Positions 23,729-57,711 of a stretch of DNA of 64,000 nt are shown here, in pieces. The notes under the pieces are model-generated. The model was not told the origin of the DNA. It saw only the letters and a list, made by a program, of their open reading frames with translations, and made no database searches. The translations under genes were made by a program, and so were the position numbers. Position 1 is the stretch's first letter; every line of letters starts with the position of its first letter. The DNA lies in the NCBI GenBank assembly GCA_964512695.1, contig CAZEJU010000001.1, positions 7,803-71,802 on the forward strand, in the 5' to 3' direction. Source of the DNA: an uncultured Gammaproteobacteria bacterium (GTDB lineage Bacteria; Patescibacteriota; Microgenomatia; Levybacterales; UBA12049).

Positions 23729-23875
23729 TTGACAATAAGCAAAAAGTAGAGTATTATCGGATATAACGATATGCATTATATAAAAGTTGAAAACATGATG
23801 GCAATGATGATGACTTCCTAACGGAGGTGTATCACGTGCTGTTTGTGAACGACCTCCTTACTAGGAGGTTTTTTT
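23729..23875 (+). promoter_or_regulatory. Promoter plus Met-codon leader-peptide transcription attenuator
   Basis: TTGACA(23729)-17 nt-TATTAT(23752). Leader ORF 23771..23821 = MHYIKVENMMAMMMTS. GGAGGU (23823..28) can pair with ACCUCC (23852..57), which alternatively forms the terminator ACCUCCU-uacu-AGGAGGU + U6 (23852..23875). Confidence 0.7.
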
Positions 23876-23886
23876 ATTGTAAAAAT

Positions 23887-24684
23887 ATGTTTGTGACCAT
23901 TATTAACGACTGTACAGATCATAACGTAATAGGAAGGCAACTAACCAGAGCAGCTGTCTTATTTTACGCGCCTGTTATTCCGGTTGGGGTTCACAACGAG
24001 TTAGAAGCTGCCGGAAACCTCATAGATGTTCTCGATGCTGCAGAAAAGGGAAAAGGAGTAATCATTCTGAATGTCGCACCCCGACATGGTAACGCGAAAA
24101 AGTGGCCGAATGGAACACCATTTGCGTACTTTAACGTCAATAATATACTTATTATAGCCACAATAGATGGCTACTCCTTGTCTCTTATAAAAAAACTCAG
24201 GATAATAGATTCCGTGAATCTCCTTGATATTCCTGATGTAGTTAACAGGATGCAAGAAGAACATGTCATTTCTTCAGAACTACGAGATCAAATCATTCAT
24301 ACGCAATTTCGAAGTTTCGAGTTCGCTCCCCGCGTAGCAAAGTGGCTGACCGAAAGAATAGAAATCCCCAGCACACCGTATGCTTTATCCCAAGTTCCTG
24401 ATGTACCAAAAGCTATATGGTATATCGATAATTTCGGAAACTGTAAAACCACACTCCTACCAGAAGATGTAAACTTCCAGGCAGGCAAAAAAGTTCATAC
24501 GGAATTAGGTGAGTTAGCTTGCTATAACAGATTAAAAGATGTCCCTGATGGAAAAACAGCTCTTATCATTGGTAGTTCAGGTTATAAAGATAAACGATTT
24601 ATCGAGTTAATAATCCAAGGTAAAAGCGCAGCACAGATATATGGTCTGCAAGTCGGATCATTAATCATAAATACTATTGGTTAA
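23887..24684 (+). CDS. DUF62-family protein (SAM hydroxide adenosyltransferase / SAM hydrolase-like, divergent)
   Basis: C-terminal hallmark IWYIDNFGNCKTTLL (compare iDxFGNxxTN), NVAPRHG (compare VVDPGVG) and TIDGYSL (compare PDNG). N-terminal motif is divergent (IINDC versus lTDFG). Confidence 0.55.
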   Translation: MFVTIINDCTDHNVIGRQLTRAAVLFYAPVIPVGVHNELEAAGNLIDVLDAAEKGKGVIILNVAPRHGNAKKWPNGTPFAYFNVNNILIIATIDGYSLSLIKKLRIIDSVNLLDIPDVVNRMQEEHVISSELRDQIIHTQFRSFEFAPRVAKWLTERIEIPSTPYALSQVPDVPKAIWYIDNFGNCKTTLLPEDVNFQAGKKVHTELGELACYNRLKDVPDGKTALIIGSSGYKDKRFIELIIQGKSAAQIYGLQVGSLIINTIG

Positions 24685-24794
24685 ATTCGACACTACAGAA
24701 ATAACATTTATGGGAATTAAGATTACCATATTAAAAAATAACAGAAAAATACCTCAATGCCTGGACTAAAGGAATCTCGCATTACCGGCTATTA

Positions 24795-25107
24795 TTGACA
24801 AGCTCAGGCTGATAAGGTAAAGTATGGAAAGAATCAAGAGTGATGGGGAGACCCCAGTCTGATCTTCCTTTTCGCCTTAGTAGATTTCTACTTCGGCTTA
24901 AAGAGCGATCTTACCGGGGCGGGAGTTTTGGCTTCATGATCCATCCGGCAACCCTTCGGTAAGTTCAAACAATGCTTGAACAACGAGCAGGGTGCCAAAC
25001 CCAACCCAAGAGATGTGCTACCGAGTACATCTTCGTAAAGGAGGATTTGATCCTGAGACAATCGAAGGATAAACTATGTATTACCTCTCTTTACGAGAGG
25101 TTTTTTT
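24795..25107 (+). promoter_or_regulatory. Promoter plus S-box (SAM-I)-like riboswitch with extra insert, antiterminator and terminator
   Basis: TTGACA(24795)-17-TAAAGT. S-box-like strings AUCAAGAG (24833), GGGAGUUUUGGCUUCAUGAUCCAUCCGGCAACC (24921..53), GGUGCCAAACCC (24991), AAGAGAUG (25008). UUUGGC (24927) is complementary to GCCAAA (24994), like the SAM-I pseudoknot. Terminator ACCUCUC-uuuac-GAGAGGU + U7 (25083..25107). GUAAAGGAGG (25035) can pair with CCUCUCUUUAC as an antiterminator. Confidence 0.5.
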
Positions 25108-25113
25108 ATTTAT

Positions 25114-26868
25114 ATGGCTAAAGAAGGTGAAATAAAAGGCACATATCAGTTTAGTATAGATGGCCCTCAGCTGACCAGTGACGATATACAGAGGAAGTTC
25201 CCTGGTGTCAAAAATAATGGTCATCTCGGAAAGACTGGTGTAGTACTACATGATACAGCAATTCCTATCGCAGCTATCCGACATCCTCGACTTATACCTA
25301 CGCGGTTAGATGGAATTATACCTGTGTTTGGTGGCCCCCAAACACACAGTAAAATAGAGCATATCCGTATCCGACCAGCTGGTGGCTCAGAAGCGAAAAG
25401 AATAGCAAAAGCAGTCCGTGGAACAACCCCAACACTCGGACCAGAAGCAGAAGCATTTGTACATAACAGAAGAACAGGCAGACTTGTACCTACATTTAAA
25501 GGAAAACAAATTGAAACACAAAAAGCACTGAGAGAAGATGCACTTGGACATACGGGATCGCTTGAAGAACACATCGTAGCATCTGCTAAATTTACAGTTT
25601 TTAGAGCTAATCAAGAGCGCAGACGAGGACGTATCGCAGTTGAAACAAGTGTTCCTATAACCTATGGTGAAGGTAAAGATGCTCGAGATAGTGAAGGTCT
25701 CGCAGGTAGTGAAAATCCATATATTGTGGCTATGACACATCTGTTCCCTGAAAATATGCTCCCTACAGAGAAGCTTGATCCACAAGTTGCAAGCGTTTTA
25801 AATCAATACGCTCTTCGCCATGGGTTTGCGACTATTTCTGATATGACCAGCGCTCTCGGTCTTAACCGCACCTGGCACATGGCTGCAAGCCATCTGAGTC
25901 TTGGTCTACCGCAGGAACAACAACCAGATGGGAAATATATTACTTCTACTGAGATCGCGATAGGAGTTATGAATGTATTTATGAGTGACCTTAATATTTC
26001 GCATATGTTTACTCATGGAACACCTATGCTAGGCGGACAATTAGTAGATGTTCCAGCACGAAATCGTCAATCAGAACATGTGGCCTCAAATCAACCGTTA
26101 CGGGATGTACGACTTGGTGCATTTAAGCATATGTTAGGCACTGCTTATCCTGGCCCGCTTATCGCGAATGAAGAAGATCTCTATGATCGCTGGAGAAAGA
26201 TTGTTATTCCAGGGAAAGCCGCGACTGTAGATCGAGCATCGGCAATTAGTATAGCACCAAATGGAGAAATCTATGCCTCAATGCATGCACGGGCTCGTCT
26301 TCGTGTGGGAGGTGATCCCACAAAACAAACTGTACGAGTCGAATCAGTAGGAGATAGCGCTACACCTTCACGCTACGACTTAATAGCGCGTGACGCGTAT
26401 CTAGTAATGTTATGGAACGGTGCTATGGAGGCAATGGCAAAAGGAAAAACCCCACAAGATTTCTGGGGGGGAAATTATCCAGCAATAACTGACTGGAAAA
26501 AGCAGCAGGAAGCGACATTAGGATTTTCTGTTAATGGACCAGCGAATAGGGAAGCACATGTGCTGATTGAACAAAACCTGGGGTTTTTACGTGATATGAA
26601 AGCTCTCCAACCTACATTAGGTACGTACATCGATTATGTAACAGCACGTATTCGTAATTTTAGTAGACCGACAAAAGCACACACACTCGATGAGTATACA
26701 ACAGATCCATCAGGTAGCATAAGCGAGGTAATTCGACGCATGAAAGAAACCGGATATAAAGATGATGAAATCGTGCGAGCTATTGACACACATCAAACTG
26801 CAGTATCACGAAGAGTTGTTCAAGTTCATGGAGATTTTAAAGCGCTTCTACAAGATGTACAAAAGTAA
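25114..26868 (+). CDS. GCS2 / glutamine-synthetase-fold carboxylate-amine ligase-like protein, paralogue A (584 aa)
   Basis: Shares family landmarks with the other paralogues: GRIAVETSV (G-x-E-x-E-type strand), AASHLSLGLPQ, MHARARLRVGGDPTKQTVRVESVGDSA (R-x-R...E...D, compare HWxxRxx...xExRxxD of GCS2/YbdK). Confidence 0.55.
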   Translation: MAKEGEIKGTYQFSIDGPQLTSDDIQRKFPGVKNNGHLGKTGVVLHDTAIPIAAIRHPRLIPTRLDGIIPVFGGPQTHSKIEHIRIRPAGGSEAKRIAKAVRGTTPTLGPEAEAFVHNRRTGRLVPTFKGKQIETQKALREDALGHTGSLEEHIVASAKFTVFRANQERRRGRIAVETSVPITYGEGKDARDSEGLAGSENPYIVAMTHLFPENMLPTEKLDPQVASVLNQYALRHGFATISDMTSALGLNRTWHMAASHLSLGLPQEQQPDGKYITSTEIAIGVMNVFMSDLNISHMFTHGTPMLGGQLVDVPARNRQSEHVASNQPLRDVRLGAFKHMLGTAYPGPLIANEEDLYDRWRKIVIPGKAATVDRASAISIAPNGEIYASMHARARLRVGGDPTKQTVRVESVGDSATPSRYDLIARDAYLVMLWNGAMEAMAKGKTPQDFWGGNYPAITDWKKQQEATLGFSVNGPANREAHVLIEQNLGFLRDMKALQPTLGTYIDYVTARIRNFSRPTKAHTLDEYTTDPSGSISEVIRRMKETGYKDDEIVRAIDTHQTAVSRRVVQVHGDFKALLQDVQK

Positions 26869-27021
26869 CATTTGACAATATATTTGTAAATATAATTGAC
26901 AATATTACATATCTTTCAGTTAGTAATTATGAGTGCTGCCAATGCCTCTCAATACTTTTCGCACTCACTCACATCCTATAGTTGAATTTCTTCTCATATC
27001 TTTGTTACAATTTACCCCTAT

Positions 27022-28503: not shown

Positions 28504-28528
28504 GCACACATACTCTTAAGTTTAAATA

Positions 28529-28675
28529 TTGACAATTTATAATTGATCTGGTAAGATTATAAGACAAATATGCAACATACGTTTAATTCTATTATTGTCG
28601 TCCTTCTCGTTACCCATTAATTGGGCGGAGGACTCGTGTTAAAAAACGTACCCGCTCAAAGAAGCGGGTTTTTTT
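28529..28675 (+). promoter_or_regulatory. Promoter plus Ile/Val/Leu-codon leader-peptide attenuator
   Basis: TTGACA(28529)-17-TAAGAT. Leader ORF 28570..28620 = MQHTFNSIIVVLLVTH (7 consecutive I/V/L codons). UUGGGCGG (28621) pairs with CCGCUCAA (28652) as antiterminator, versus terminator ACCCGCU-caaaga-AGCGGGU + U7 (28650..28675). Confidence 0.75.
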
Positions 28676-28696
28676 ATGTTTTAAAAGGAGAAATAT

Positions 28697-30556
28697 ATGA
28701 GTTCACATAAAGAATATGCAGGGCAAGCTGCTCTCAAATCCTTAGCTGAAAGATATATTAGAAGGTATGGCTTAAAAGCTGATTTTAATCCCGAAGAGAC
28801 AGGTGGAGTAATTTTCGCTCAAGACGGTACACCACTAAGGCAAGTCCGTGCTCCTTTCTGGAGAGCAGAAAAAGGTGCAAAGGGAACAGGCAGAAAAGAT
28901 ATGCCTAGAGTTTACACTGCTACAAATCCTGACCCGGATAAACCTAACTCAGGATTAGAATTAGAATTCCAAGCTTTCCATGCCATGACAGGAGAAATGG
29001 AACCAGTCATGGATGCAGACCACCCAGTACATCAGGGGTTATTGGAACACAATCGAAAAGCAAAAAATGGACACACTGAAAATAATGGAAATGGACTTGG
29101 AAACGGAAATGGGGTTAATGGATATGTTTTTGTAGAAGACGGCGCTGACTGGGACCATGACTTCCCAACTGGACCTAAAGAAGTAGGATTTAGCCCAGAG
29201 CTAACACGTCATACTTTGGAGGAAAACTTTCCTCCGAATGTAGATTCCGGAACACGAAACAGAGAGACATTATATGGTATTAGCACAGTTGTACAATTAG
29301 CAGAAGCAAATAACACACTTATCTCTCCGTTCTCGACTATACCGCATCGAGATATTACACAAATTGATACGAATCAACATCCATATGTCCAACGCATAGC
29401 GTTCGAACACATGGGTCCCGAAAAAGTTAAACACTTTACAGGTACTTCACTGCAAATTCACGTAGAAATCAAGGATTTAGAGTCAGCTTTACACGCTGCA
29501 AACCGTTGGCAGCTAGTTACACCTATTATGTATGCGGGAACACTTTCAGCACCTTTTATCGCAGGAGAAATAACACCCGATTTACAAGAACGGTATGGTC
29601 AAGTTCCCGACGTGGTTGGCGATCCACTAAAAGAAAGCACATTTGATACTATGACACAAGGACCCCATGAATCATATAGATATTATGGTAGATTAATAGG
29701 ATCACCTTCTGGAGGTGCAATGAGACAGCCTCTACCTGAAACATCTGAAGAATTTTGGTCTGCGGCTAATAATCTTCTAAAATCAGGAGAAAGTCCTTCC
29801 GTGGGTAGAGTAGCAGGACACCATGCAGATTTTCGTATTCGCCCTGACTTGGGACCGTATGGCACAATCGAGTTAGCAGTATTAGATACTGCCGGTGCGC
29901 GCATTCCAAATATCGTAGCCATTCAAGAATTCTCCAGAGCTTTGGGTTGGAAGTTACAGAGACAAGCAGGTAATTGGGAACAAATTATGGAAGATCCTCG
30001 TTTTAAATCGATATTCGGGCAAGCACCTTCTAAGGAAACATTCGAGACTGTTCACTGGAATACTATAGAGGTAGCAAAACATGGAAATAAGGCAATGATT
30101 ACTGGTATGGACGGAGAACAGCATTCTATAGCAGAGTTATGGAGTAAGTTAGTGGAATATGTACAAGAACCTATTGAAGAAACCGGTTATACTGGTTTAC
30201 CGGAAGGTATTATCGAGGTATTAGATAAAGCTTATCAAGACCCATCAGAACTATTTGATGTTTATAAAGACGAAAAAGGAGTTACTTCTGTCAAAGGATT
30301 CTATGAAACCGGAGTCGGAACTATGAGCCAGTGGGCCAGACAACGTGCAGAAGAGTTGAAAGCAAGAGGCTTAGCAGAAAAAGAAGCCATTATCGATACT
30401 ACACTTAATGTAGGCAAAAGCTTTCATGAACATGTAAAGTCAATGACACCCAAAGATCTTAATACTTTATATGTAAGCGCTAACAAGGATGTGGATAAAT
30501 CACCCCAATACAGCGCTAATGGTCAGAATCCATCATACCAAACCACTGCGTCCTAA
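28697..30556 (+). CDS. GCS2-fold carboxylate-amine ligase-like protein, paralogue B (619 aa)
   Basis: SGLELEFQAF, GTSLQIHVEIKD, GHHADFRIRPDLGPYGTIELAVLDTA (close to the GCS2 HWDVRP...T(I/V)E(V/L)RV.D signature). AAAGGAG SD 6 nt upstream. Confidence 0.65.
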   Translation: MSSHKEYAGQAALKSLAERYIRRYGLKADFNPEETGGVIFAQDGTPLRQVRAPFWRAEKGAKGTGRKDMPRVYTATNPDPDKPNSGLELEFQAFHAMTGEMEPVMDADHPVHQGLLEHNRKAKNGHTENNGNGLGNGNGVNGYVFVEDGADWDHDFPTGPKEVGFSPELTRHTLEENFPPNVDSGTRNRETLYGISTVVQLAEANNTLISPFSTIPHRDITQIDTNQHPYVQRIAFEHMGPEKVKHFTGTSLQIHVEIKDLESALHAANRWQLVTPIMYAGTLSAPFIAGEITPDLQERYGQVPDVVGDPLKESTFDTMTQGPHESYRYYGRLIGSPSGGAMRQPLPETSEEFWSAANNLLKSGESPSVGRVAGHHADFRIRPDLGPYGTIELAVLDTAGARIPNIVAIQEFSRALGWKLQRQAGNWEQIMEDPRFKSIFGQAPSKETFETVHWNTIEVAKHGNKAMITGMDGEQHSIAELWSKLVEYVQEPIEETGYTGLPEGIIEVLDKAYQDPSELFDVYKDEKGVTSVKGFYETGVGTMSQWARQRAEELKARGLAEKEAIIDTTLNVGKSFHEHVKSMTPKDLNTLYVSANKDVDKSPQYSANGQNPSYQTTAS

Positions 30557-30590
30557 CAAGTATCAACTATTGTTGTGATACAATAACAAC

Positions 30591-31759: not shown

Positions 31760-32107
31760 TTGACACGTCATTAACCTCATGGTAGAATTACTATAACATA
31801 CGAATAACAGCGTTGATCCAGTATGGATGGGACTGGGGATTCTCCTTCATTAAAGTTACGCAAGGAGAGCGCTGGGTCTAATCAACCCCGGAGGCGAAAC
31901 CGTAAAAAGATCAGCAACATGTGTCATAGCTGCAGATAAGCACTGATTAAAAGCTGATTCTCGCTGATATAGAGCATGTCATGAATGAGAAGTCCTCCCA
32001 CGCCAAAGCTCCGGAGGATAAAACAAGGTGGCACCGTCCTTAAATAAACGTGGGACCCTTGTAAATAACTACAAAGTAATTTTGTGGTTGTTTACAAGGG
32101 TTTTTTT
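31760..32107 (+). promoter_or_regulatory. Promoter plus T-box-like leader (antiterminator bulge UGGC; specifier not resolved)
   Basis: TTGACA(31760)-17-TAGAAT. ACAAGG-UGGCACC-GUCC..GGAC-CCUUGU (32023..32062) is a T-box-type antiterminator with a 7-nt bulge. Its 3' strand is shared with a 14-bp terminator CCCUUGUAAAUAAC/GUUGUUUACAAGGG + U7 (32056..32107). Confidence 0.6.
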
Positions 32108-32108
32108 A

Positions 32109-33269
32109 ATGGTAAAAACTATGAAAGAAGGAGTTATTATACAAGTTGATCCGAGAATACCAGAGCCATATATAACATATATCCGGCAACGAAATGGGAA
32201 TGTCGGCAGAGATATAGCAGATCACCTTGGCCTACCCTATGTAGGAGACAGTCAGGGAGTACAACGTGCAGCTGATTATTATCCTGTACTTGCCAGAACT
32301 GTCACCAGAGAACATGCAAGAGTATTAGGTGCAGAAAATACAAGAGATTTCTATGGTCTTGCAGTTGAAGATTTAAATGTTGTGGGTAAATCTATACTCC
32401 ATCCTTCTATAAGCAGAAGACATCCTTTATTTCATAGAGAACAATTCGCACGAAAAGTCTTAGGTCAAACCCTTCCTGGTATAACCGGTTTCTCTAAAGA
32501 AGATTTATTAGCAGGGTATGAAAATGGTTACGCTGGATCACTGGATCATGCTTTAGATTACGAGCAGTATGGATTACGTGTTAAACTTCCAAATGAATCC
32601 GACGGCGTAGGACAATTTACTATACAAAGCAAGGATGATCTGGTTACTCTTCTAGAAGCTATTGAGGATAAAGATATCCACGAACAAGGACTGGTTCTGG
32701 AAGCTGATGTACAGAAACCTGAGACTATATCAGTCGGATTCGCGAGAATCGGTGATGAACAATTAAGTTTCATAGCCCAACAAAAAGATGCACGTGTGTT
32801 AGTAGATCATAAGGGCAAAACAATAGAGCAGAATAGATATGGTGGGGCATACGTCGTTGTGGCAAAAGGCCCTTTACAGTTACTATGCCAAGCCACGGAA
32901 GCAACTTCGCGTGAGAGATCTGCTGTAGAAAAAACACTGGCGTTTCATGAAGCCTATCAACGCATCTATGATCCTTTAGCTTCGAGATTAAGTTTCGATG
33001 TCATTTTCGGAGAAGGGAAAAACGGTCTCCCACTTGCAGGAATAAGTGACATTACTGGTAGGCTAGGTGGAACGTGTCCAGCACTCATGCAAGCTGCTGA
33101 AGAGTTCAGGAAAAACCCTTCTATTCAAATGGTAGGAACAGAAGTATCTCTTAATTATACTCCCCATGTACGATTTCCCTATGAAGATGAAGCTAAGGTG
33201 TATGTAGACCACCCAACACTCAGACTTACAGCAAGAGTAAACTCAAAACACAGAAGACTCGCAGCATAG
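32109..33269 (+). CDS. ATP-grasp-like protein (386 aa from the ATG at 32109)
   Basis: GLRVKLPNESDGVGQFTIQSKDDLVTLLE.. and ..GLVLEADVQKPETISVGFARIG.. fit ATP-grasp central-domain strands. I rejected the ORF-track start (32028) because it overlaps the leader terminator. Confidence 0.4.
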   Translation: MVKTMKEGVIIQVDPRIPEPYITYIRQRNGNVGRDIADHLGLPYVGDSQGVQRAADYYPVLARTVTREHARVLGAENTRDFYGLAVEDLNVVGKSILHPSISRRHPLFHREQFARKVLGQTLPGITGFSKEDLLAGYENGYAGSLDHALDYEQYGLRVKLPNESDGVGQFTIQSKDDLVTLLEAIEDKDIHEQGLVLEADVQKPETISVGFARIGDEQLSFIAQQKDARVLVDHKGKTIEQNRYGGAYVVVAKGPLQLLCQATEATSRERSAVEKTLAFHEAYQRIYDPLASRLSFDVIFGEGKNGLPLAGISDITGRLGGTCPALMQAAEEFRKNPSIQMVGTEVSLNYTPHVRFPYEDEAKVYVDHPTLRLTARVNSKHRRLAA

Positions 33270-33278
33270 ACATGAATC

Positions 33279-33422
33279 TTGACATTACACATGGGCTATC
33301 CTATAATCATTTATATGATACGACAAGCAGTAAATTTCTTTTTCTTTTTTACCCCACTCGCGGGGAGGTAATTTCGTGATCACACGAAATACTCTATACC
33401 CCGCATAAGGCGGGGTTTTTTT
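33279..33422 (+). promoter_or_regulatory. Consensus promoter plus Phe-codon leader-peptide attenuator
   Basis: TTGACA(33279)-17-TATAAT(33302). Leader ORF 33315..33371 = MIRQAVNFFFFFTPLAGR, with its ATG only 7 nt after the -10 (leaderless). CCCC/GGGG (33352/33362) 1:2 hairpin. GCGGGG (33360) can pair with CCCCGC (33399), versus terminator CCCCGC-auaag-GCGGGG + U7 (33399..33422). Confidence 0.8.
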
Positions 33423-33435
33423 ATGGAGGAATTCT

Positions 33436-35136
33436 ATGGCAATGACTGAACAAGACATACTAAAAGGTACAATGAACGGCCGAGTTGATTCAGGTTTAAA
33501 GGCAACTGATAACACAGCAGTACCTTTAGGTGAACAATCTCATGGCGGCATAGTCCGAAATACCGATGGACTATGGTGGCTACCTGCCTCACCACATCGC
33601 GGAAGGGGTTTCGAATGGCAAGACTCAAAGGATCCTAGATATAACGCAACACATTTAAGTGAAGTTGGCTACCACCCTGAACCTCTAGAACCACAGAGAA
33701 CCGTAGAAGTATTAGCTGAACATTTACAAGAAAAAGTTGAAGGAAGAATTCCGGAAACAGAAACCCATGGAGTTGAAGTTGAAGGGACTACCTATGATCG
33801 AGAAGGCAATCTCTTAGCAATTCCTGTCGATCAGAAAACAAATCCCGAATTATTAGCTTCTACACATGAAGAAGCCACAAAACTGGAAAACGGACAGTAC
33901 CCGAGAAAACCATTTGAAATAGCTCGAGCAGTAGCCAGTGCAACCCAGCGGGGTATCGCAATCGCTGAAAATCATAGCGGAATACTTGTCCTCACAGAAG
34001 TACCAGAAGGTGGAACATTTCATGATGCTGAAAACAGTACATTTCCATATATAGTACGTCAACAAGGAAGAATTCGAAGACACGCATTAGCACACCTTGA
34101 TGAGATACCTGAAGAAACATGGGCTCTCTATCGACGTTACGGCGTAGATATTCGAGAACTACTGGAATCTAATAGACCGCTCAATTGGCCTACTCATGGA
34201 TTGCATCATCATGCCGGTGCGCCACAAATAGAAGGATTAGTCGACCCGAGAGCCGCACTGGTTATGGGAAAAATGCGTCAAACACTTTTTGCAAAATTAC
34301 TGCAATACCCAGCATTTAATAGCAGTAGATTATATGAAAAAGAAACTGATCTCCGCGGAGTCCGATCTGTCGCAAAACACGCGCTTGCTACAACAGTTAA
34401 TAATGATTTACCTGATAGTGCTGAAGAGCTAATGTGGGATGTGCAACGGGCAATGAGAGAGGGAGAAATCGCTACGCCTTCACGATATCCTTATAAAGGC
34501 CAACACGATGTCGTTCGATTTAGGATGGATGGAAAACATAAAACTGTCGAGTCTATTAAAGATCCTATGACACCTGACCTATTAACAGCGCTTCATCTCG
34601 TGTTCGGCAATCAACTCCTGGATACCATCGGCCAGCAAGCTCTCGTACAAGTAGGTGGAGATGAAAGCAAAGTTATGGGTTATTTACAATCTATACATCC
34701 TGAGCTTTTTGCCACATTGCCTTCATTAGGTCCTGAGTCATCACATAGTGCAGATATGCAGTTTAATAAAGCAGGGTATCTAGGAACATTCCGCGGGAAA
34801 ACTTATGCTGAGCTTATAAGAGATGCACGTGCTGTCGTGGAAGGGGTAGGCAAACATTATACAGCACTTGAGACACAAGCTAAAATTGTAAATCACGTAC
34901 TAGGATACCAAACAGATATTCCTCATCCACAGACTGATCTAGCAACATTTATGGGAATAAAAAATGGAGTTTACCAACCAAATAGTATGAGAGCAGGAAT
35001 TCTAACGGATTATAAAACGGGTATTCCTACAAATGAACTGTTAGTTGTCCAGGCTGAAGCAACGAAATTACAAGCTCAAGCTTTAGCACAAGTGAGAGAT
35101 GATAAAGATCTTCTCGAAGTGTATGGATTACAGTAA
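33436..35136 (+). CDS. GCS2-fold carboxylate-amine ligase-like protein, paralogue C (566 aa)
   Basis: HGVEVEGTTY, THGLHHHAGAP, GQHDVVRFRMDGKHKTVESIKDPM. GGAGG SD 6 nt upstream. Confidence 0.55.
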   Translation: MAMTEQDILKGTMNGRVDSGLKATDNTAVPLGEQSHGGIVRNTDGLWWLPASPHRGRGFEWQDSKDPRYNATHLSEVGYHPEPLEPQRTVEVLAEHLQEKVEGRIPETETHGVEVEGTTYDREGNLLAIPVDQKTNPELLASTHEEATKLENGQYPRKPFEIARAVASATQRGIAIAENHSGILVLTEVPEGGTFHDAENSTFPYIVRQQGRIRRHALAHLDEIPEETWALYRRYGVDIRELLESNRPLNWPTHGLHHHAGAPQIEGLVDPRAALVMGKMRQTLFAKLLQYPAFNSSRLYEKETDLRGVRSVAKHALATTVNNDLPDSAEELMWDVQRAMREGEIATPSRYPYKGQHDVVRFRMDGKHKTVESIKDPMTPDLLTALHLVFGNQLLDTIGQQALVQVGGDESKVMGYLQSIHPELFATLPSLGPESSHSADMQFNKAGYLGTFRGKTYAELIRDARAVVEGVGKHYTALETQAKIVNHVLGYQTDIPHPQTDLATFMGIKNGVYQPNSMRAGILTDYKTGIPTNELLVVQAEATKLQAQALAQVRDDKDLLEVYGLQ

Positions 35137-37163: not shown

Positions 37164-37296
37164 TTGACGAACTGTATGACTCATGGTATATTGCTCAAAT
37201 ATATGAAATCCACTTTTTTAGTTTGTTGTGTTACAACTCTGCTTTAAGGGGTTGTAGTTATCGTGGAATATGCACCCCGCCAAGCGGGGTTTTTTT
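37164..37296 (+). promoter_or_regulatory. Promoter plus leader-peptide attenuator with tandem Cys codons (specificity tentative)
   Basis: TTGACG(37164)-17-TATATT. Leader ORF 37203..37247 = MKSTFLVCCVTTLL. GGGG (37248) immediately after the stop can pair with CCCC (37275), versus terminator CCCCGC-caa-GCGGGG + U7 (37275..37296), directly abutting the gene's ATG. Confidence 0.55.
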
Positions 37297-38289
37297 ATGA
37301 GAAACTTATTAGAATTAGGAATTTTCGAAACATACGGAAATGGTGGAGGAGCAATTACCAAAGATAGAGTATCTCCTCCTATTTATCCAGTAGATGCTAA
37401 TTTAGGTGAATGGAGGATACTAGCAACTGATCATGAAAGAGAATTCCCGGGCGAGCATCTCGAACGTGCTTTTGAAGTGATAAAGCAATGGCAGGAAGTA
37501 TTTCCTCGGGAAGATACCTGGATTAATCGTGCGTATGGTATTCCGTCACCGATTATTAAACTCGATGCAACAATTACTAATAATGAATTACAGGTGTATG
37601 AAGTAGAAGATAGACCAGCAGGAATGGGTTATAGCGAATTAATAAATCCTGACTTACGAACAAATTTTGCTGATATTGTATCTACTTGGCCAGATTTCCG
37701 AGTCGTCGTTTCTCCTCAAAGATCTGGAAATGACGATCATTTATGGGCAAAGCCAGCAGAAGCAGATTGGCATGGTCTAGTTCTCGTCCGGGCAGAACCG
37801 TCTGAAGAAGAATTCCATGCATTACAGCGAAGATCCATAAGTACTCTGCTTACAGAAGGAGACAAATCGTATGGTGAAAAAATGGGTTTATGGAAAAGAG
37901 TTCATACAGCAGATGAGATAGATTTTTCACAAGGTTTTGTCGTCAAGCCCACCCAAGGAAGCAAAGGGAATGGTGTGTATGTATCTTTACCGAAACAATA
38001 CATGAAAGAACATGGGATCGACCCAGGTAGAAATGGCGTAGCTACTGCAGGGAAAATACGAGGTGTAATCGATACTGCAGCAGCAAATGGAGGAGTCTTC
38101 GTACAACAATATCATCCTCCTATGGAAACAGGTATCCCGACCCATCCCTGGGCAGTAAACCGGTTATTCTTCGGGTATGATATGCAAAATGGAGAATGGA
38201 GATATATAGGGGGAACATGGAATGCTCGAAATAATTTGAAAATTCATGGAGCTAGTGATACATTAACTGGCCCGTTAAAAACGGTATAA
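37297..38289 (+). CDS. ATP-grasp-like ligase (330 aa)
   Basis: GFVVKPTQGSKGNGVYVSL (ATP-grasp K-P-x-x-G-S-x-G-x-G-V strand), ..VFVQQYHPP... Start set at the ATG abutting the terminator U-tract. Confidence 0.5.
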   Translation: MRNLLELGIFETYGNGGGAITKDRVSPPIYPVDANLGEWRILATDHEREFPGEHLERAFEVIKQWQEVFPREDTWINRAYGIPSPIIKLDATITNNELQVYEVEDRPAGMGYSELINPDLRTNFADIVSTWPDFRVVVSPQRSGNDDHLWAKPAEADWHGLVLVRAEPSEEEFHALQRRSISTLLTEGDKSYGEKMGLWKRVHTADEIDFSQGFVVKPTQGSKGNGVYVSLPKQYMKEHGIDPGRNGVATAGKIRGVIDTAAANGGVFVQQYHPPMETGIPTHPWAVNRLFFGYDMQNGEWRYIGGTWNARNNLKIHGASDTLTGPLKTV

Positions 38290-38346: not shown

Positions 38347-38492
38347 TTGACGTCCAAATAGATATAACTCTATAATACAAAGTGTTCTATATGAATATCA
38401 TGAATAACAATGGAGCAGTAAAGAAGAACCTCTCGTAAGAGGGGTCTTTCTGTTGTCTGCACAATAGTACCCCTTACAGAAGGGGTTTTTTT
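38347..38492 (+). promoter_or_regulatory. Promoter plus Asn-codon leader-peptide attenuator
   Basis: TTGACG(38347)-18-TATAAT(38371). Leader ORF 38391..38438 = MNIMNNNGAVKKNLS (5 Asn in 15 aa). CCUCU/AGAGG hairpin over the stop codon. GAGGGG (38439) can pair with CCCCUU (38470), versus terminator CCCCUU-acag-AAGGGG + U7 (38470..38492). Confidence 0.65.
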
Positions 38493-38615
38493 ATGGATTT
38501 TTTGCTGAACCAATAGTTCTACTTAGAAATCCAAATCCTCCAAAAAGCGCTCTTCGAGCCGCAGTTCAAATGAACTAAAGCGGAAAGGAAGCTTAGGAGG
38601 ACAAAGCTTTACATT

Positions 38616-40966: not shown

Positions 40967-41085
40967 AACCATACACTCTTCACCCTCCCTTTTCGAATTT
41001 ACGTGAACACTTCCCGAGGTTTGAATAGAAACCAACCTCCCAGGTTGGCAACTAGTAATTTGAGGACTTGCTTAAGGGAGCGTTT

Positions 41086-41204
41086 ATGCGATATACTTTC
41101 TTCAACATGAGTAAATCAGTTTTCGGAACTACCACTACAACAACCCTTTCCTAAGGGAGGTTGGCGTGGTATTATTTAACAACCTCCTTAATAGGAGGTT
41201 TTTT
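41086..41204 (+). promoter_or_regulatory. Thr-codon leader-peptide attenuator
   Basis: AGGGAG SD, then leader ORF 41086..41154 = MRYTFFNMSKSVFGTTTTTTLS (6 consecutive Thr codons). CCCUU/AAGGG 1:2 hairpin. AAGGGAGGUUG (41153) pairs with CAACCUCCUU (41180), versus terminator CCUCCU-uaau-AGGAGG + U6 (41183..41204). The terminator is nearly identical to that of the Met leader. Confidence 0.8.
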
Positions 41205-41322
41205 ATTGGGGAGAACACGTATCCGTCAGCTGAGGGATACCACGATAGAATCCCATGGATTATTGCATGGAATCCTATCGCCCCGGTGTACGTCAGGACT
41301 GAAAGCTGACCACAAATAACAT

Positions 41323-46211: not shown

Positions 46212-47315
46212 ATGGAAGAGCGATTATTAACAATAAAAAATAATGCACTACCTCTCATATTCGATGCTGAATCACTTAAGGAACTTGAAGCAGCAAGGAT
46301 TCAGATTTTAGGAAAAAATGGAACATTAACTCTTATAATGAAGGAAATAGCGAAAGCTGATCCAGAAGACCGGCCGAGATTCGGAAAGGCAGCAAATGAA
46401 ATAAAAAGTGTTCTTGAAAATGCAATCTCTGAAAAATTATCAGACCTCAACCGTCAGCAGACAGATCAATTCTCCAGCAAAAAAGTAAAATTGGATGTCA
46501 CAGAACCTGGAATCCGGCCGCAGTTAGGGCATCTCCATCTTATTACACAAGCAATTTATGAAATTACTACTATTTTTGAGAAAATAGGTTTTACACGTGT
46601 CCGATACCCTGAAGTAGAGTGGGATTGGTTTGCATTCGAGGCATTAAACTTTCCTGAAAACCACCCAGCCAGGGATGACTGGGAAACTTTTTTTATAAAA
46701 GAAAAACCAGATCCCAAACTCGGTCCTATGCTACTTACTCCACACACCTCATCAGGACAAGTAAGAGAAATGCAAAAACACATGGAACAAAAGTTAAAAG
46801 TCAAAAGTCAAAAGTCAAAAGTTCAAGAAAATGAAGTTAACACAATTAATATTAAAATGTTAAATATTGCGAAGTGTTATCGCCGTCAATCTGATGTATC
46901 CCATACACCTATGTTTCACCAGTTCGAAGGATTGGTCGTAGGAAAGGATATAGCAATTACACATCTAAAAGGAACTTTGGATTACTTCGTAAGATCATAT
47001 TTCGGAGAGAATAGGAAAGCCCGTATTCGACCCTATCATTTTCAATTCACTGAACCTTCATTCGAAGTTGATGTTTCATGTGGGGTTTGTAATGGTAACG
47101 GATGCAGATTATGTAAAGCTGGATGGCTGGAGATGGGCGGAGCAGGTATGGTACACCCTAATGTACTAAAAGCTGGAGGAATAGACCCTAAAGAATATAC
47201 TGGTTTCGCGTTCGGATGGGGAGTAGAAAGAGTACTGATGATGAAAGAAGGAATTGAAATAGATGATTTACGATTGCTGTATTCGAATAAACTAGAATTT
47301 CTTGAACAGTTCTAA
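46212..47315 (+). CDS. pheS: Phenylalanyl-tRNA synthetase alpha subunit
   Basis: ..LTPHTSSGQVREM.., ..CYRRQSDVSHTPMFHQFEGLVV.., ..GFAFGWGVERVLM... Start set at the ATG at 46212, outside the repeat. Contains an in-frame (AAAAGTY)x5 array. Confidence 0.9.
   Translation: MEERLLTIKNNALPLIFDAESLKELEAARIQILGKNGTLTLIMKEIAKADPEDRPRFGKAANEIKSVLENAISEKLSDLNRQQTDQFSSKKVKLDVTEPGIRPQLGHLHLITQAIYEITTIFEKIGFTRVRYPEVEWDWFAFEALNFPENHPARDDWETFFIKEKPDPKLGPMLLTPHTSSGQVREMQKHMEQKLKVKSQKSKVQENEVNTINIKMLNIAKCYRRQSDVSHTPMFHQFEGLVVGKDIAITHLKGTLDYFVRSYFGENRKARIRPYHFQFTEPSFEVDVSCGVCNGNGCRLCKAGWLEMGGAGMVHPNVLKAGGIDPKEYTGFAFGWGVERVLMMKEGIEIDDLRLLYSNKLEFLEQF
46789..46823 (+). repeat. Five tandem heptamers (AAAAGTT AAAAGTC x3 AAAAGTT) inside the pheS coding sequence
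   Basis: Read directly. Encodes ..KLKVKSQKSKVQ.. in a loop between conserved PheS motifs. The same heptamer, as its reverse complement TTTTGAC, occurs in the T-box leader at 56186..56220. Confidence 0.85.
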
Positions 47316-52526: not shown

Positions 52527-52710
52527 GTTCCGATATATATTAGGCCTAATGATAAAAGTTGTACGGAACGACCGTGGATATAATGTACTTACTATTACTA
52601 AACCTGAGAGTAGGGAATCACATGAAACTAAAAAGAAAAATTACCTCGTAACAAACTTGCGTTGCACAAAGATAACTTCATTAATAATATATTCAATACT
52701 TATTTTGCGA

Positions 52711-54291: not shown

Positions 54292-54419
54292 ATCTAAATT
54301 AGGAAGGCGTGTATAATTAGAAGGTTTTTTTCTATCTTGAATCCAGTCAGGAGTATGGGAAGCTTGAGCATTTAGAACAAGATCGGGATTAAAGGCAAAA
54401 TTTAGTACTGCAGTTTGAT

Positions 54420-55760
54420 CTACTTTACTATTGGGATGAAAGCCGACAGTTGTAACCCATTGATATAATTTTGCTTTTTTTCATCTTTTTTTCCTTCTCT
54501 TCCTAACGTGTTTAATTTTATTAACAAATATTTCTTTTGCAGAAGTTCAGCAAGTTTCGCGAAACGTTTTAGATTATTCCAACTCTCAAAAACTTTTTTC
54601 GGATTTTGAAACTCTGATGCCAGTGCAGAAACTTCTGGTGTATCTTTAGCTTCCTCTAGTAATTGTATGCAAGTCTCCCAATTCGTTAGGATTGTTTGAG
54701 CAATAGGAATAAAAAAGTCATAAGAGGTATATTCAGCTACCTCATCATCATCGCTCAACTTATACCTTCCACGGTCAAGTGAAACTTGATGGAGAATATT
54801 TGCCCAGAATTCATCAGGTGTCAGACCACTGACTTCATATAGCTTTAAGACATCTGGAAATGCATGGATTGCATCATGGGTACTTATATCTTGTTCAAAT
54901 GTTGCTTCATGAGTTTTTGGATCAAGGTGATAGCGTCGTATATATTTAAACATTCTATCATAACCAAATATTTCTCCTGCTGCTCTGAAATTAGTAATGT
55001 CTAACTCCTTCCATTCATTGATCCATGATTCTAAGTTTTTTGATCCACTAGTTATTGCATCAAATGCTCTTTTAAAATCTTCTGAAGATCTTAAGTTAAG
55101 AATGTCAATTCCCGCTTTCTTTACAAACTCTGCATCTATAGGAGATATACCGACTTTATGTGCATAATCAATTTCACTCCTTGTTAAACCAGAAGGTTCA
55201 ATAATTTTATTTAACAAAGCGTAAGCATGATCAAACGGTAAGACATATTCACAAATTGCATAAAGATCTGAGAAGGAATTAACGTTATATGATGCAAAAA
55301 GAGATTGAAGCTGCGGTGGCATATCCTTTTTATATTCTTCTAATAAACCTTTTGAATCGATATCTTTGAACACCTGCATGATCTGACCATTTAGATCGGA
55401 CTCTCTTCCGTAGTTTGTTATTAAGAAATTGGAAAGTACGTTTAAAGGGGGAGGTGTCTGGGAGTGATCATAAATATATTTATAAAAATCAAACCTTTTA
55501 ACTTGTCTAGACCCAGTTCTATTATCATCAGTTAATAATTCATAGGTTTTAGCTGCCTCATCTGGTGTAAGAACTAGGCCATTATATTGAGTTTGTAATT
55601 CTTCTACTAACTTTGTATTATCTTCTCCTTCGACTGTGGAAAATTTTCTAAAAAGATCTTCGAATTTTGCTTTTCTTTCTATTTCAGCAGGATTAACTTC
55701 TACAACACTATTAGTATCTGATATCTGATATCTGATATCTGATATCGACAATATCTTCAT
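54420..55760 (-). CDS. Hypothetical protein, upstream ORF of the frameshift-linked pair (446 aa)
   Basis: Long ORF with no recognised family. It ends 17 codons after the A7 tract. Confidence 0.5.
   Translation of the reverse strand: MKILSISDIRYQISDTNSVVEVNPAEIERKAKFEDLFRKFSTVEGEDNTKLVEELQTQYNGLVLTPDEAAKTYELLTDDNRTGSRQVKRFDFYKYIYDHSQTPPPLNVLSNFLITNYGRESDLNGQIMQVFKDIDSKGLLEEYKKDMPPQLQSLFASYNVNSFSDLYAICEYVLPFDHAYALLNKIIEPSGLTRSEIDYAHKVGISPIDAEFVKKAGIDILNLRSSEDFKRAFDAITSGSKNLESWINEWKELDITNFRAAGEIFGYDRMFKYIRRYHLDPKTHEATFEQDISTHDAIHAFPDVLKLYEVSGLTPDEFWANILHQVSLDRGRYKLSDDDEVAEYTSYDFFIPIAQTILTNWETCIQLLEEAKDTPEVSALASEFQNPKKVFESWNNLKRFAKLAELLQKKYLLIKLNTLGREGKKDEKKQNYINGLQLSAFIPIVK
54474..54480 (-). 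promoter_or_regulatory. Candidate -1 frameshift heptamer A_AAA_AAG
   Basis: Zero-frame codons GAA AAA AAG of the 446-aa ORF. The -1 frame has TGA immediately upstream (54483..54481) and is open from 54480 into the 526-aa ORF. Confidence 0.45.
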
Positions 55761-55810
55761 TCATGCTTTATATTATTACATATTTAAAAACATTTTTTTG
55801 AATCGGTCTA

Positions 55811-56331
55811 TTGACGTACTATAGGGAATATAGTATCATTATTTAACAATTTATAAAGGCTATGACGAAGTCAAAGTAGTTTTCGCAGAGTGACACCAGA
55901 GAGAAGACGTCGCTGCAAGATCTTCCGTATCTTCGAAAATGAATTACGCTTCTGAGCTGTATGCCGAATCCGTTAACCGATGGATAGGCAGAACCGGGTT
56001 CGCACCGTGATAGCGAAAGAATGTGTCGCAGAAGAAGTGGAGCATTCGAAAATAAGCGTTTATCGTATTACTTCGAATCCCTTCATAAGGGATTTTTTAT
56101 TGCTAAGATAAGCGAAACCGAGGTGGTACCACGGAGAAAAATTAAAAGGTAAAAGGTAAAAATTGTATAAGGAAAGATAGTAGTAATTTTACTTTGGACT
56201 TTTGACTTTACACTTTTAACTTTCTTGTTCCGTCCTTGAGAATCATTATTGTTCGAGTGAAGTGAGAGTTATTTTTTACACATAAACTTCTCATTTTGTT
56301 CGAAGAATAGTATTTCTGGGACGGTTTTTTT
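55811..56331 (+). promoter_or_regulatory. Promoter plus T-box leader, probable Tyr (UAC) specifier, with unusually large inserts
   Basis: TTGACG(55811)-17-TATCAT. Stem I base GCUAUGACGAAG/CUUCUGAGC with AGUA...GAA flank and UAC+G at 55945..48. AGAGA box. F-box CCGUUA (55970). T-box GAGGUGGUACCACGG (56119..34). CGAGG-UGGUACC-ACGG pairs with CCGU-CCUUG (56230..38). Terminator arm CCGUCC/GGGACGG + U7 (56230..56331). Confidence 0.6.
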
Positions 56332-57711
56332 ATGAAAGACAATGTACTATCAACTGAGCAAGAACAAGAAAACGAGTTAGAGATGCATGAAGCTTTCCAC
56401 AAGCAAGTACATGCAGTTCTAGAATCTGAAGACAGATTCAGAAAAGCTGAAAGAACAACGAGAATTGGCCTTGAAGCCGAATATAGTGTCATAAATGCAA
56501 CGTGTGATCAAGTAGACCAAACAGTCAGAGATCAAATTATTGAAGACAATAGAGACTTCGCTACCCAAGAGTTAGGGGCAGCACAAATTGAATTACGAAC
56601 TGACCCTATTATCCTTTCTGATGGAGGAATCTGGCAGGTATTTGACCAGATGGCATCTAGAGATGACGCTATAAGGAATGCGGCACATAGACGGGGTGCG
56701 CGTATACTGAGAAGCGGCACAAACCCCTTAGTCGATCTTCATGACATACTAAGAACTGATAAACCAAAATACCGGCAAGTACCTGATTTCCATAATAGAA
56801 AGAGAAAGTTTGGCACAGACACAACAATTGGCAATGGAAAAAGAGTTGATGTAGGAGACGCTGCTGTAGTTGCACTCTTAAACTCTTTGCAGACGAATAT
56901 AGAAGCTGTAGATTTCGCAGATGCCACAGATAAATTAAACAGATCGTTAATGATTGGACCGTATGTTACTGCAGTCAGTTCCGGGGCACGGTATATCGCT
57001 CATCAAGACGCAGGCTTAGCTGATTTACGAATTCTTGCTTGGGAAACGAGTCATGACACGAGAACTGACTCAGAGAGAACACTAGGTGAAAAAACCAGAG
57101 TCGGACTGCCAGCACGATACTATACTGATGTAAAGGATTACTTTACACAAGTGGGATCATATCCATTTATTCTCCATAATCCAGAGGCAGCACTTCAAAT
57201 AGGAATCGGTCTTCATTGGAGAGATACACGGTTAAAAGTAATAGGGGACAGCCTTGTGGTAGAATTCCGTCCCATATCTGCACAGCCAACATCTGCAGAA
57301 AATGTAGCTTCTGCTTTATTTTATACAGGAAGACTACATTGGTCTCAAGCCACAAACGAACCATTGCTGCCGTTTGATAAAGTAGAACATAATAGAAAAC
57401 AAGCACTACACGAAGGCCCTAGAGGGACTATGTACTATACAGAAGACAATAATGTACAGCGATATAAAGCTCCAGAAATCATAAAACTAGAATTAGCGAG
57501 AGCAAAACATGGATTAGAGATGATAGGTTGTCACCCAAAAGATATTGAACCATTCTTTTCAGTTCTAGAAAAAAATCTCGATGAAGGTACACCTGCTGAA
57601 CGGATGCACAATGTCGTATCACGTCTCACAGAAAATGTTTCTGAGAAAGATAAAAAAGAGGCTACACATGATGCTCTTATCACAGCCATTCAAGTCTTAC
57701 AATTCGTATGA
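56332..57711 (+). CDS. GCS2-family carboxylate-amine ligase-like protein, paralogue E (459 aa, the most canonical copy)
   Basis: RIGLEAEYSVIN, GLHWRDTRLKVIGDSLVVEFRPISAQPTSAENVASALFYTG matches the GCS2/YbdK signature closely. Confidence 0.7.
   Translation: MKDNVLSTEQEQENELEMHEAFHKQVHAVLESEDRFRKAERTTRIGLEAEYSVINATCDQVDQTVRDQIIEDNRDFATQELGAAQIELRTDPIILSDGGIWQVFDQMASRDDAIRNAAHRRGARILRSGTNPLVDLHDILRTDKPKYRQVPDFHNRKRKFGTDTTIGNGKRVDVGDAAVVALLNSLQTNIEAVDFADATDKLNRSLMIGPYVTAVSSGARYIAHQDAGLADLRILAWETSHDTRTDSERTLGEKTRVGLPARYYTDVKDYFTQVGSYPFILHNPEAALQIGIGLHWRDTRLKVIGDSLVVEFRPISAQPTSAENVASALFYTGRLHWSQATNEPLLPFDKVEHNRKQALHEGPRGTMYYTEDNNVQRYKAPEIIKLELARAKHGLEMIGCHPKDIEPFFSVLEKNLDEGTPAERMHNVVSRLTENVSEKDKKEATHDALITAIQVLQFV

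Follow-up and report, generated by a model that had tools for sequence, protein, structure and literature searches.

Nine probable promoter-proximal amino-acid attenuators with a recurring terminator end in a Patescibacteria genome

In the attenuator terminators of the E. coli trp, thr, his and phe operons, the 5' arm is rich in C, the 3' arm is rich in G, and the U-run is long, and the thrL leader of E. coli mixes Ile and Thr codons. In dual-acting riboswitches, one hairpin serves both as terminator and as sequestrator of the Shine–Dalgarno (SD) sequence. In Deinococcus deserti, 60% of the mRNAs are leaderless, and 14 leader peptides, whose targets include tRNA synthetase and amino-acid genes, have been predicted to act in attenuation (PMC4007540); in the cysS example (Fig. 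6 of that study), only the downstream gene is preceded by an SD sequence. For mycobacteria, a preprint describes polycysteine leaderless short open reading frames (ORFs) (bioRxiv 10.1101/834739). In this study, a window of 64,000 nucleotides (64 kb; contig CAZEJU010000001.1, G+C content approximately 38%) from a genome of the Patescibacteria, or Candidate Phyla Radiation (CPR), was analyzed, and all coordinates given below are those of this window. Nine promoter-proximal amino-acid attenuators were found on its plus strand, namely, six leader-peptide units (Met, Ile/Val/Leu (ILV), Phe, Cys, Asn or Lys, and Thr), one Tyr T-box, one T-box-like leader (U5), and one structured leader without an assigned class (U2).

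The leader-peptide units resemble the enterobacterial trpL, thrL, pheL, ilvL, and hisL leaders in their cognate codon run, their regions 1–4, and their C-rich/G-rich terminator with a U-run. Unlike in those leaders, the leader ORFs of the window lack an SD sequence and start 7–14 nt past the −10 hexamer, and a start codon abuts the U-run. The targets differ as well, being ligases of the GCS2-like (Pfam, glutamate–cysteine ligase family 2) and ATP-grasp kinds, M20 peptidases, and a SAM-hydrolase-like protein (SAM, S-adenosylmethionine) rather than biosynthetic operons. The closest precedent is the set of leaderless leader peptides of D. deserti, with which the window shares a leaderless-dominated genome and a leader peptide that begins at a 5'-terminal AUG just past the −10 box, as predicted here. 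However, the lineage and the targets differ from those of D. deserti, the transcription start sites were mapped there and are predicted here, and the terminator 3' arm with its U-run appears in the window to double as a ribosome-binding site. As in dual-acting riboswitches, an SD-like 3' arm (GGAGG or GGGG) lies approximately 7 nt from the start, and a folded terminator would block initiation; unlike in those riboswitches, the arrangement is one that we infer, and the start opens a tiny ORF in four units. No report of attenuation or of leaderless expression in Patescibacteria was found in the literature searched.

In their sensing parts, the units belong to familiar kinds, namely, leader-peptide attenuators and T-boxes. 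New are the lineage, the start codon placed against the U-run in nearly every unit, and the kinds of regulated gene. It is considered likely that nine separate attenuators of known types, some of them copies, have been fitted to a leaderless genome, with the terminator 3' arm and the run of seven U residues (U7) presumably serving as a ribosome-binding site.

Predicted sensing by leader peptides and structured RNAs

Each unit opens with a near-consensus sigma-70 promoter, as determined by a promoter scan. The Met attenuator (23729–23886) has the promoter TTGACA-17-TATTAT at 23729–23757 and a leader ORF at 23771–23821 (MHYIKVENMMAMMMTS) with Met at five of six codons. In the ILV attenuator (28529–28696; promoter 28529–28557), the leader ORF at 28570–28620 (MQHTFNSIIVVLLVTH) holds seven cognate codons in a row, and five in a row are present in the Phe attenuator (33279–33435; promoter TTGACA-17-TATAAT at 33279–33307; leader ORF 33315–33371, MIRQAVNFFFFFTPLAGR). 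The Thr attenuator (41068–41322), with the −10 hexamer TATACT at 41092–41097, has six in a row (leader ORF 41107–41154, MSKSVFGTTTTTTLS). The run is weak in the Cys unit (37164–37299; promoter 37164–37192; leader ORF 37203–37247, MKSTFLVCCVTTLL), in which two Cys codons are adjacent and the assignment is tentative, and ambiguous in the Asn or Lys unit (38347–38516; promoter 38347–38376; leader ORF 38391–38438, MNIMNNNGAVKKNLS; 1:2 hairpin 38428–38445), in which five of 15 codons are for Asn and a KK pair is also present.

The nascent RNAs were folded with constraints that represented the ribosome positions, namely, absent, on the regulatory codons, or at the stop codon. In the leader-peptide units, the codon runs are followed by alternative 1:2, 2:3, and 3:4 pairings. 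When the ribosome was absent, the codon-bearing region 1 paired with the G-rich region 2, and the terminator formed (Met, ILV, Cys, and Thr). When the ribosome was placed on the regulatory codons, region 2 paired with the C-rich 5' arm of the terminator in five of the six units (Met, ILV, Phe, Cys, and Thr), and with the ribosome at the stop codon, the terminator alone was left. These folds suggest a textbook attenuation scheme: a ribosome stalled at the cognate codons, or a bound uncharged tRNA, would free the upstream G-rich segment, and pairing of this segment with the C-rich 5' terminator arm would let RNA polymerase read through. In the Asn unit, the 2:3 pairing, read by eye, is available only for a stall at K11–N13. 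As the geometry fits this position better than N5–N7, the sensed amino acid (Asn or Lys) is uncertain. The Phe unit scored 26 bits with the Rfam Phe_leader model, of which the gathering score is 55, and across the window only tRNAs reached the Rfam gathering scores.

The Tyr T-box (55811–56334; promoter 55811–55839; Stems I–III 55853–56072) was matched by the Rfam T-box model (RF00230) with 58.2 bits and E = 2.4e-10, which is below the gathering score of 93. At the specifier position of the model it has GAA-U-UAC-G, in agreement with the neighboring tyrS and with the Tyr leader peptides of orthologues. The antiterminator (56119–56135 paired with 56229–56238) was read as CGAGG-UGGUACC-ACGGA ... 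UCCGU-CCUUG and overlaps the 5' arm of the terminator (56229–56324). The unit is similar to a tyrS T-box in its probable UAC specifier in Stem I, its UGGUACC bulge (56124–56130) matching an A73 discriminator, and its adjacent tyrS, and similar to T-boxes in that antiterminator and terminator are mutually exclusive. Unlike in a typical T-box, the antiterminator loop has an insertion of approximately 95 nt, the terminator loop is approximately 70 nt long, the start abuts the U-run, and the first gene is a GCS2-like ligase and not an aminoacyl-tRNA synthetase, transporter, or biosynthetic gene.

In the T-box-like leader U5 (31760–32120; promoter 31760–31788), an antiterminator of textbook T-box form, CAAGG-UGGCACC-GUCC...GGAC-CCUUG, was read from the sequence at 32024–32061; it is mutually exclusive with a terminator of approximately 20 bp (32055–32101). 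No Rfam match to U5 as a T-box was obtained, even at E ≤ 10. The UGGCACC bulge implies a G73 tRNA, K-turn/AGUA-like motifs are present in the leader (31795–32107), and the specifier reading AAUCAAC is ambiguous, standing for Asn, Ser, or Gln. The structured leader U2, approximately 280 nt long (24795–25113; promoter 24795–24823; terminator 25083–25101; T7 25101–25107), matched no Rfam family at E ≤ 10, and an antiterminator with a UGGNACC bulge was not found in it. U2 is strongly structured, with a fold z-score of −4.8 and a structured part of approximately 250 nt (24830–25082), and the helix that closes it, GAUCUUCCUUU / AAAGGAGGAU, is in competition with the terminator 5' arm. U2, which lies ahead of a paralogue of the Thr-regulated gene, may represent either a new riboswitch or a T-box that has diverged strongly. 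Matches such as psRNA14 and RprA in a permissive Rfam search of U2 and U5 were dismissed as hairpin-driven chance. The description of the units as amino-acid attenuators in the first-pass annotation of this DNA is borne out by the codon runs, the alternative folds, and the T-box match.

Terminator ends, start codons and leaderless layout

The string GGTTTTTTTATG occurs five times in the window, always on the plus strand (28667, 33414, 37288, 38484, and 56323), compared with 0.02 copies expected from shuffled sequences, and five copies were reached in none of 100 shuffles. When one mismatch was allowed, GGTTTTTTTATT was also matched at 23867 and 25099; the sequence at 32099 is GGGTTTTTTTAATG, and the ninth unit (Thr) has GGTTTTTTATTG at 41197. 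The terminators of these four units end in GG-T6/7-A(T/A)TG or GG-T7-ATTT. The T-run is exactly seven long in eight of the nine units, and the next base is A in all nine. The Met and Thr terminators are ACCTCCTTACTAGGAGGTTTTTTT (23852–23875) and ACCTCCTTAATAGGAGGTTTTTT (41182–41204), and those of Phe and Cys are ACCCCGCATAAGGCGGGG and ACCCCGCCAAGCGGGG. Accordingly, the common GG-U7-AUG string reported earlier at five sites was recovered exactly and far above chance, and the close variants placed near 23870, 25101, and 32101 correspond to the matches at 23867, 25099, and 32099; the near identity of the Met and Thr terminators and the CCCCGC/GCGGGG common to Phe and Cys also hold on reading.

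The nine attenuator terminators ranked among the strongest sites of the window in a scan for hairpins followed by T-runs. In the leader-peptide units, they have stems of 7–8 pairs and T6–7 and lie between the leader ORF and the gene. As the same scan found no canonical terminator at gene 3' ends across the 64 kb, a substitute control was drawn from related loci, which consisted of 90 sites with a hairpin and at least six T residues from 31 loci. The T-run was directly followed by ATG in five of the nine units and in four of the 90 control sites (Fisher p = 2e-4). A dispersed repeat element was rejected as the source of the terminators, as the terminators differ in their stems and the repeat search grouped nothing but the terminators (families D2 and D9).

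A start codon lies 0–1 nt past the U-run in eight of the nine units, and the spacer from the 3' arm to this AUG or UUG is 7–8 nt. Only in the Cys unit (terminator 37274–37290; T7 37290–37296) and the Tyr unit (T7 56325–56331) is the ATG after U7 the gene's own start, at 37297 and 56332, respectively. In U5 (T7 32101–32107), the ATG at 32109, 1 nt past the U-run and in frame with that at 32121, is probably the start of the DUF3182 gene. In the ILV unit (terminator 28650–28669; T7 28669–28675), the AUG at 28676 opens AUG-UUU-UAA (28676–28684), which ends 12 nt ahead of the gene start at 28697 and is followed by the SD sequence AAGGAG (28685–28690). In the Phe unit (terminator 33398–33416; T7 33416–33422), the ATG at 33423 opens eight codons that overlap the gene start at 33436, with GGAGG at 33425–33429, and in the Asn unit (terminator 38469–38486; T7 38486–38492), the AUG at 38493 opens seven codons (38493–38516). 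The first-pass annotation had described a module that ends in AUG; an ATG does follow U7 at five sites, but those at 28676, 33423, and 38493 open ORFs of two, eight, and seven codons. In the Met unit (stem 23851–23870; T7 23869–23875), the UUG at 23877 opens UUG-UAA (23877–23882), which ends 4 nt ahead of the gene ATG at 23887. In the Thr unit (terminator 41181–41200; T6 41199–41204), the UUG at 41206 opens 37 codons (41206–41319), ending 3 nt before the ATG at 41323 of a gene that has no SD sequence. The arrangement of this UUG ORF may reflect translational coupling; neither its length nor its sequence is conserved in the related locus L030.

Only three genes have strong SD sequences (AAGGAG at 28697, GGAGG at 33436, and AGGAGG at 38616), and each of these genes follows an attenuator. 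For the starts at 37297, 56332, and 25114, the terminator 3' arm had been claimed to be the sole SD-like element, and reading of these sites agrees. As leaderless expression is impossible for genes located behind a terminator, the G-rich 3' arm and U7 are taken as their probable ribosome-binding site. The pairing energies of the 3' arms, computed against the canonical anti-SD sequence, which was assumed, were −10.8 kcal/mol for Met and Thr, −7.9 for Phe, −7.4 for Asn, −7.3 for Cys, −7.0 for Tyr, and −6.4 for U2, compared with −5.8 kcal/mol at the 5th percentile of the background and −8.7 to −10.2 kcal/mol for the three true SD sequences. Under this arrangement, the freed G-rich 3' arm would act as the SD sequence and U7 as the spacer, with the start codon right behind. 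The short ORFs of the Met, Thr, ILV, and Phe units would deliver ribosomes to the real start, which lies at or near the ORF end, and a transcript that leaked through with the terminator hairpin still folded would be poorly translated. In L031, the closest relative found, with a 70% orthologue of the Tyr gene, the stem differs and yet GAGGAGGGGA-T7-ATG is kept, which argues for a function in the Tyr unit.

Two hairpins elsewhere in the window were noted. A promoter at 599–627 is followed by the hairpin ACCCCGTGTGAGGGGTTATTTTATG (636–660) before a GTPase-like gene at 658; its 3' arm, GAGGGG, is the sole SD-like element and is followed by TTATTTT and ATG. Another promoter (17624–17652) is followed by a 17-bp hairpin with T5 (17667–17705) and a gene at 17737. 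The first of these is a hint that leadered genes of this genome usually rely on a G-rich arm and a U-rich spacer of 7 nt for ribosome binding.

The ATG of the leader ORF follows the −10 hexamer after a gap of 7 nt in Phe, 9 in Thr, 10 in Cys, 12 in ILV, 13 in Met, and 14 in Asn, and an SD-like 4-mer at −20 to −4 is absent from all six. The 5' untranslated regions (UTRs) predicted from these gaps are 0–3 nt long for Phe, Thr, and Cys and 5–7 nt long for ILV, Met, and Asn. The layout is also common among the other genes. A −10 hexamer with at least five of six matches, ending 4–13 nt before the start, was found for 24 of 50 window genes, compared with 7.3% of all ATG triplets, and the mode of the gap among such genes was 6–7 nt. 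SD-like 4-mers precede eight of the 50 genes, compared with a background of 11%. The same layout is present at thrS, tyrS, and both M20 genes. As approximately half of the window genes share the layout of the leader ORFs, leaderless expression would be the norm of the genome and not a peculiarity of the attenuators, and the genome, as judged from these starts, appears to run mainly on leaderless mRNAs. Thus, the layout and the spacing of 7–14 nt without SD sequences, reported earlier for five leader ORFs, stand, and the count is six; leaderless or nearly leaderless translation of the sensing peptides is likewise predicted, but the layout is not a trait specific to a regulatory module. The first leader ORFs of the related loci L001, L005, L006, L008, L029, and L030 also lie 6–12 nt past TATAAT-like hexamers. 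L029, with 56% G+C, is overall not leaderless-looking (two of 19 genes).

Examples of starts with a TATAAT-like hexamer and no SD sequence are 6477, 7877, 10012, 12504, and 35982 on the minus strand and 21555, 27022, 43198, 51870, and 57724 on the plus strand. The gene at 27022 has a TACAAT hexamer 10 nt ahead of its ATG, and the region upstream of it (26872–27021) contains repeated TTGACAATATAA units and an 18-codon Ser-rich ORF (MSAANASQYFSHSLTSYS). This region was not counted as an attenuator because no terminator lies behind the Ser-rich ORF, and no relation of this gene to the regulated enzymes was found.

Regulated genes and their relatives

The regulated genes are named below by their start positions. 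The Met unit precedes a gene (23887–24684) with a SAM hydroxide adenosyltransferase C-terminal domain (Pfam SAM_HAT_C, E = 2.9e-9). As hydrolysis of SAM gives methionine, this fits induction by Met starvation, and by its domain match the protein is the only regulated gene product with a function plausibly matching its sensor. The gene is unrelated to that of the Thr unit, which encodes a ligase-like protein of approximately 590 aa and is followed by thrS (43198). Five of the regulated genes are distant paralogues of 459–619 aa, as determined by hhalign and BLASTP: g25114 (25114–26868; U2, 584 aa), g28697 (28697–30556; ILV, 619 aa, GCS2-like), g33436 (33436–35136; Phe, 566 aa), g41323 (41323–43107; Thr), and g56332 (56332–57711; Tyr, Pfam GCS2, 459 aa), all on the plus strand. 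A different sensor precedes each; four of these sensors name an amino acid, and U2 does not. The g25114 and g41323 proteins are 26% identical (BLASTP, E = 2e-38). The family profile of g33436 matched g25114/g41323 at 99% with E = 7e-18 in hhalign and g28697 at 92%, and its match to the GCS2-like Tyr family (62%) was weak. A weak match of g28697 to the NCBIfam YbdK family (E = 4.5e-6) was also obtained, so that a weak link of the set to GCS2/YbdK carboxylate–amine ligases is suggested by these profiles.

The second gene of the ILV operon (30591) encodes an M20 peptidase (Pfam), as does the second gene of the Asn operon (39896), which follows an ATP-grasp_3 gene (Pfam) at 38616 with its own AGGAGG; the two M20 proteins are 37% identical. 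In the Tyr operon, tyrS (Pfam TyrRS) starts at 57724. The g33436 family had no match in Pfam or the Protein Data Bank, a word-index search for its homologues returned only the query itself, and only 42 of 1.84 billion cluster representatives belonged to the family. Ten window proteins were tested, each of which was a singleton at 90% identity, and an AlphaFold2 model of g41323 from a six-sequence alignment had a pLDDT of 45.

Homologues of g56332 were found in Saccharibacteria, Levybacteria, Microgenomates, Yanofskybacteria, other Patescibacteria, and some DPANN archaea. In at least five CPR loci, Tyr-rich leader peptides precede the GCS2-like orthologues, often as two attenuators in tandem. 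These leaders are located at 4801–5056 in L001, approximately 960–1330 in L005, 9836–9952 in L006, 9785–10015 in L007, approximately 2000–2330 in L008, and 8597 in L018, with peptides such as ...HYYYSS... and ...SFYYYQLLY... (L001), ...INYYYSTVR (L006), and MIYYYYY... (L018). In L006, the ligase gene is followed by an M20 peptidase gene. As the Tyr gene of the window has a T-box and its relatives have Tyr leader peptides, the sensor type was swapped in evolution. In L030, which holds a 76% orthologue of g41323, the leader MSKSIIITTTTTTLS lies 8 nt past TATAAT and mixes Ile and Thr codons, as does E. coli thrL. In L029, an Ile/Val/Leu leader precedes a gene of the g41323 family, and a Phe leader (MITASTSFGFFFFFTPQMAG) precedes a 566-aa orthologue of g33436; the terminators of these two L029 leaders are nearly the same in sequence. 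As the pairings of Phe, Tyr, and Thr with their enzymes are kept in relatives, these pairings are old.

Several repeats lie outside the attenuators. Perfect or near-perfect tandem repeats of 7 nt were found in coding DNA, namely, TATCTGA in 4.6 copies (55715–55746) at the N-terminus of the minus-strand gene 54420–55760 and CAAAAGT in five copies inside pheS (46788–46822); as the heptamer is not a multiple of three, gain or loss of copies would cause a frameshift. A 44-nt tandem repeat of 2.4 copies (12603–12706) overlaps the end of the tRNA gene 12695–12766, and part of the tRNA gene 10721–10791 is exactly duplicated over 33 nt (10738–10770 and 11091–11123), 353 nt apart. Such copies of tRNA pieces may have been left behind by integration.

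Origin of the likeness and its meaning

All 36 leader pairs were scored by local alignment against shuffles. The Met/Thr pair scored clearly above the others (z = 16.8), with approximately 75% identity over 64–65 columns that begin at the leader-end TCC-TAA, take in region 2 and the terminator, and end at the ATTG behind the U-run. Differences are found in the codon runs and, complementary to these, in the distal part of region 2. The Met and Thr terminators of the window share 24 of 29 positions, compared with 23 of 29 between the Thr terminator of the window and its orthologue in L030. As judged from this alignment, Met and Thr are one attenuator that was copied and re-targeted, on unrelated genes. 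The matches of Phe/Cys (z = 9.0) and ILV/Asn (z = 8.8) were confined to the terminator, and these pairs are possibly copies. Most other pairs share little beyond the end of the 3' arm and T7-ATG, and the similarity of the Thr terminator to the Stem III hairpin of the Tyr leader (z = 3.8) is too weak to interpret.

The first-pass annotation had proposed that all units are variants of one module, duplicated along with the enzyme genes and then re-targeted. In its full form, a single ancestral promoter–leader–terminator–ATG module would have been duplicated with the enzymes, and T7-AT(G/T) would be a relic without function. The homology of the Met and Thr leaders with their re-targeted codons fits this origin, as do the near-identical Phe/Cys and ILV/Asn terminators (loops and flanks included), the M20 paralogues in both the ILV and the Asn operons, and the distant relationship of the five enzymes. 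The three ATGs after U7 that are not gene starts are what relics would look like, and T7-AT, present in eight of the nine units, is not the rule in relatives. However, the homologous Met and Thr leaders stand before unrelated genes, and the leaders of the paralogues g25114 and g41323 differ in sensor type and show no significant similarity (z = 2.4); therefore, co-duplication of leader and gene is not demonstrated. Most pairs share GGGGTTTTTTTATG alone. Moreover, the enzymes are only 17–29% identical, so that a neutral leader duplicated with them would be past recognition; the Phe, Thr, and Tyr pairings are older than the split from relatives at 37–76% protein identity; and the conservation of T7-ATG in L031 behind a different stem speaks for a function. 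Copying and re-targeting thus hold for Met/Thr, duplication together with the genes is not supported, and apart from the terminator the remaining units have little in common. The old pairings, together with terminators that are alike within each genome, agree less well with a single recent burst than with constraint or local copying, and descent of all units from one module is considered unlikely.

The strings could instead be generic to efficient intrinsic terminators, which consist of a GC-rich stem and a U-run, with the ATG or TTG behind the run having no role. The attenuator terminators of E. coli are alike in style, and those of the relatives of the window have the same style, with CCCGCC...GGCGGG followed by T7–8. 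Style alone does not cover the excess of ATG directly after the run (five of nine against four of 90 sites), the start codon within 0–1 nt in eight units, two of which have there the only possible gene start, or the likeness of Met and Thr, which reaches 40 nt upstream of the terminator; and as the 64 kb holds no canonical terminator at a gene 3' end, there is no genome-typical one with which to compare. This account is therefore given a very low probability.

With nine separate attenuators fitted to a leaderless genome, the family look would have three causes. The leaderless genome would place the leader ORF, like most genes, just past the −10 box without an SD sequence; every switch would need a strong canonical terminator, C-rich in its 5' arm, G-rich in its 3' arm, and followed by U7; and the gene behind the terminator would need internal initiation by way of the 3' arm, U7, and the adjoining start. 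Several observations weigh against this explanation. The Phe antiterminator was present in the folds even without a ribosome, and the Asn unit folded without an antiterminator when the ribosome was placed on the N5–N7 codons. The 5' UTR lengths of 0 to approximately 7 nt were derived solely from the −10 positions, and the gaps of Met, ILV, and Asn (12–14 nt) lie at the tail of the distribution in the genome. The pairing of the 3' arm is weak in ILV (−5.4 kcal/mol) and U5 (−4.3 kcal/mol), and the 16S 3' end lies outside the window. As the ORF behind the Asn terminator ends 99 nt ahead of the gene, translational coupling does not apply there. Furthermore, the start codon does not abut the U-run in L001, L006, L007, L008, and L030, so that the adjacency is a local habit and not a lineage-wide rule.

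Classical amino-acid attenuation, by peptides and T-boxes, thus probably operates in a Patescibacteria genome that apparently expresses most of its genes without 5' UTRs. If the arrangement of terminator and start has a function, it reveals how internal initiation is achieved in an organism that otherwise relies largely on leaderless mRNAs. A further reading combines a composite terminator and ribosome-binding element with leaders that label an unstudied set of ligases and M20 peptidases as a starvation-induced system for amino-acid acquisition or salvage; it is put forward tentatively, with somewhat more doubt than confidence. If it is true, one hairpin would gate both transcription and translation of genes that are barred from the default leaderless route, and the leaders would serve as amino-acid labels (Tyr, Phe, Thr, Ile/Val/Leu, Met, Cys, and Asn or Lys). 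CPR bacteria are thought to lack amino-acid biosynthesis. The larger prize would be this amino-acid-labelled enzyme set, as the leaders assign an amino acid to enzyme families without known function and make the response of CPR bacteria to single-amino-acid starvation testable.

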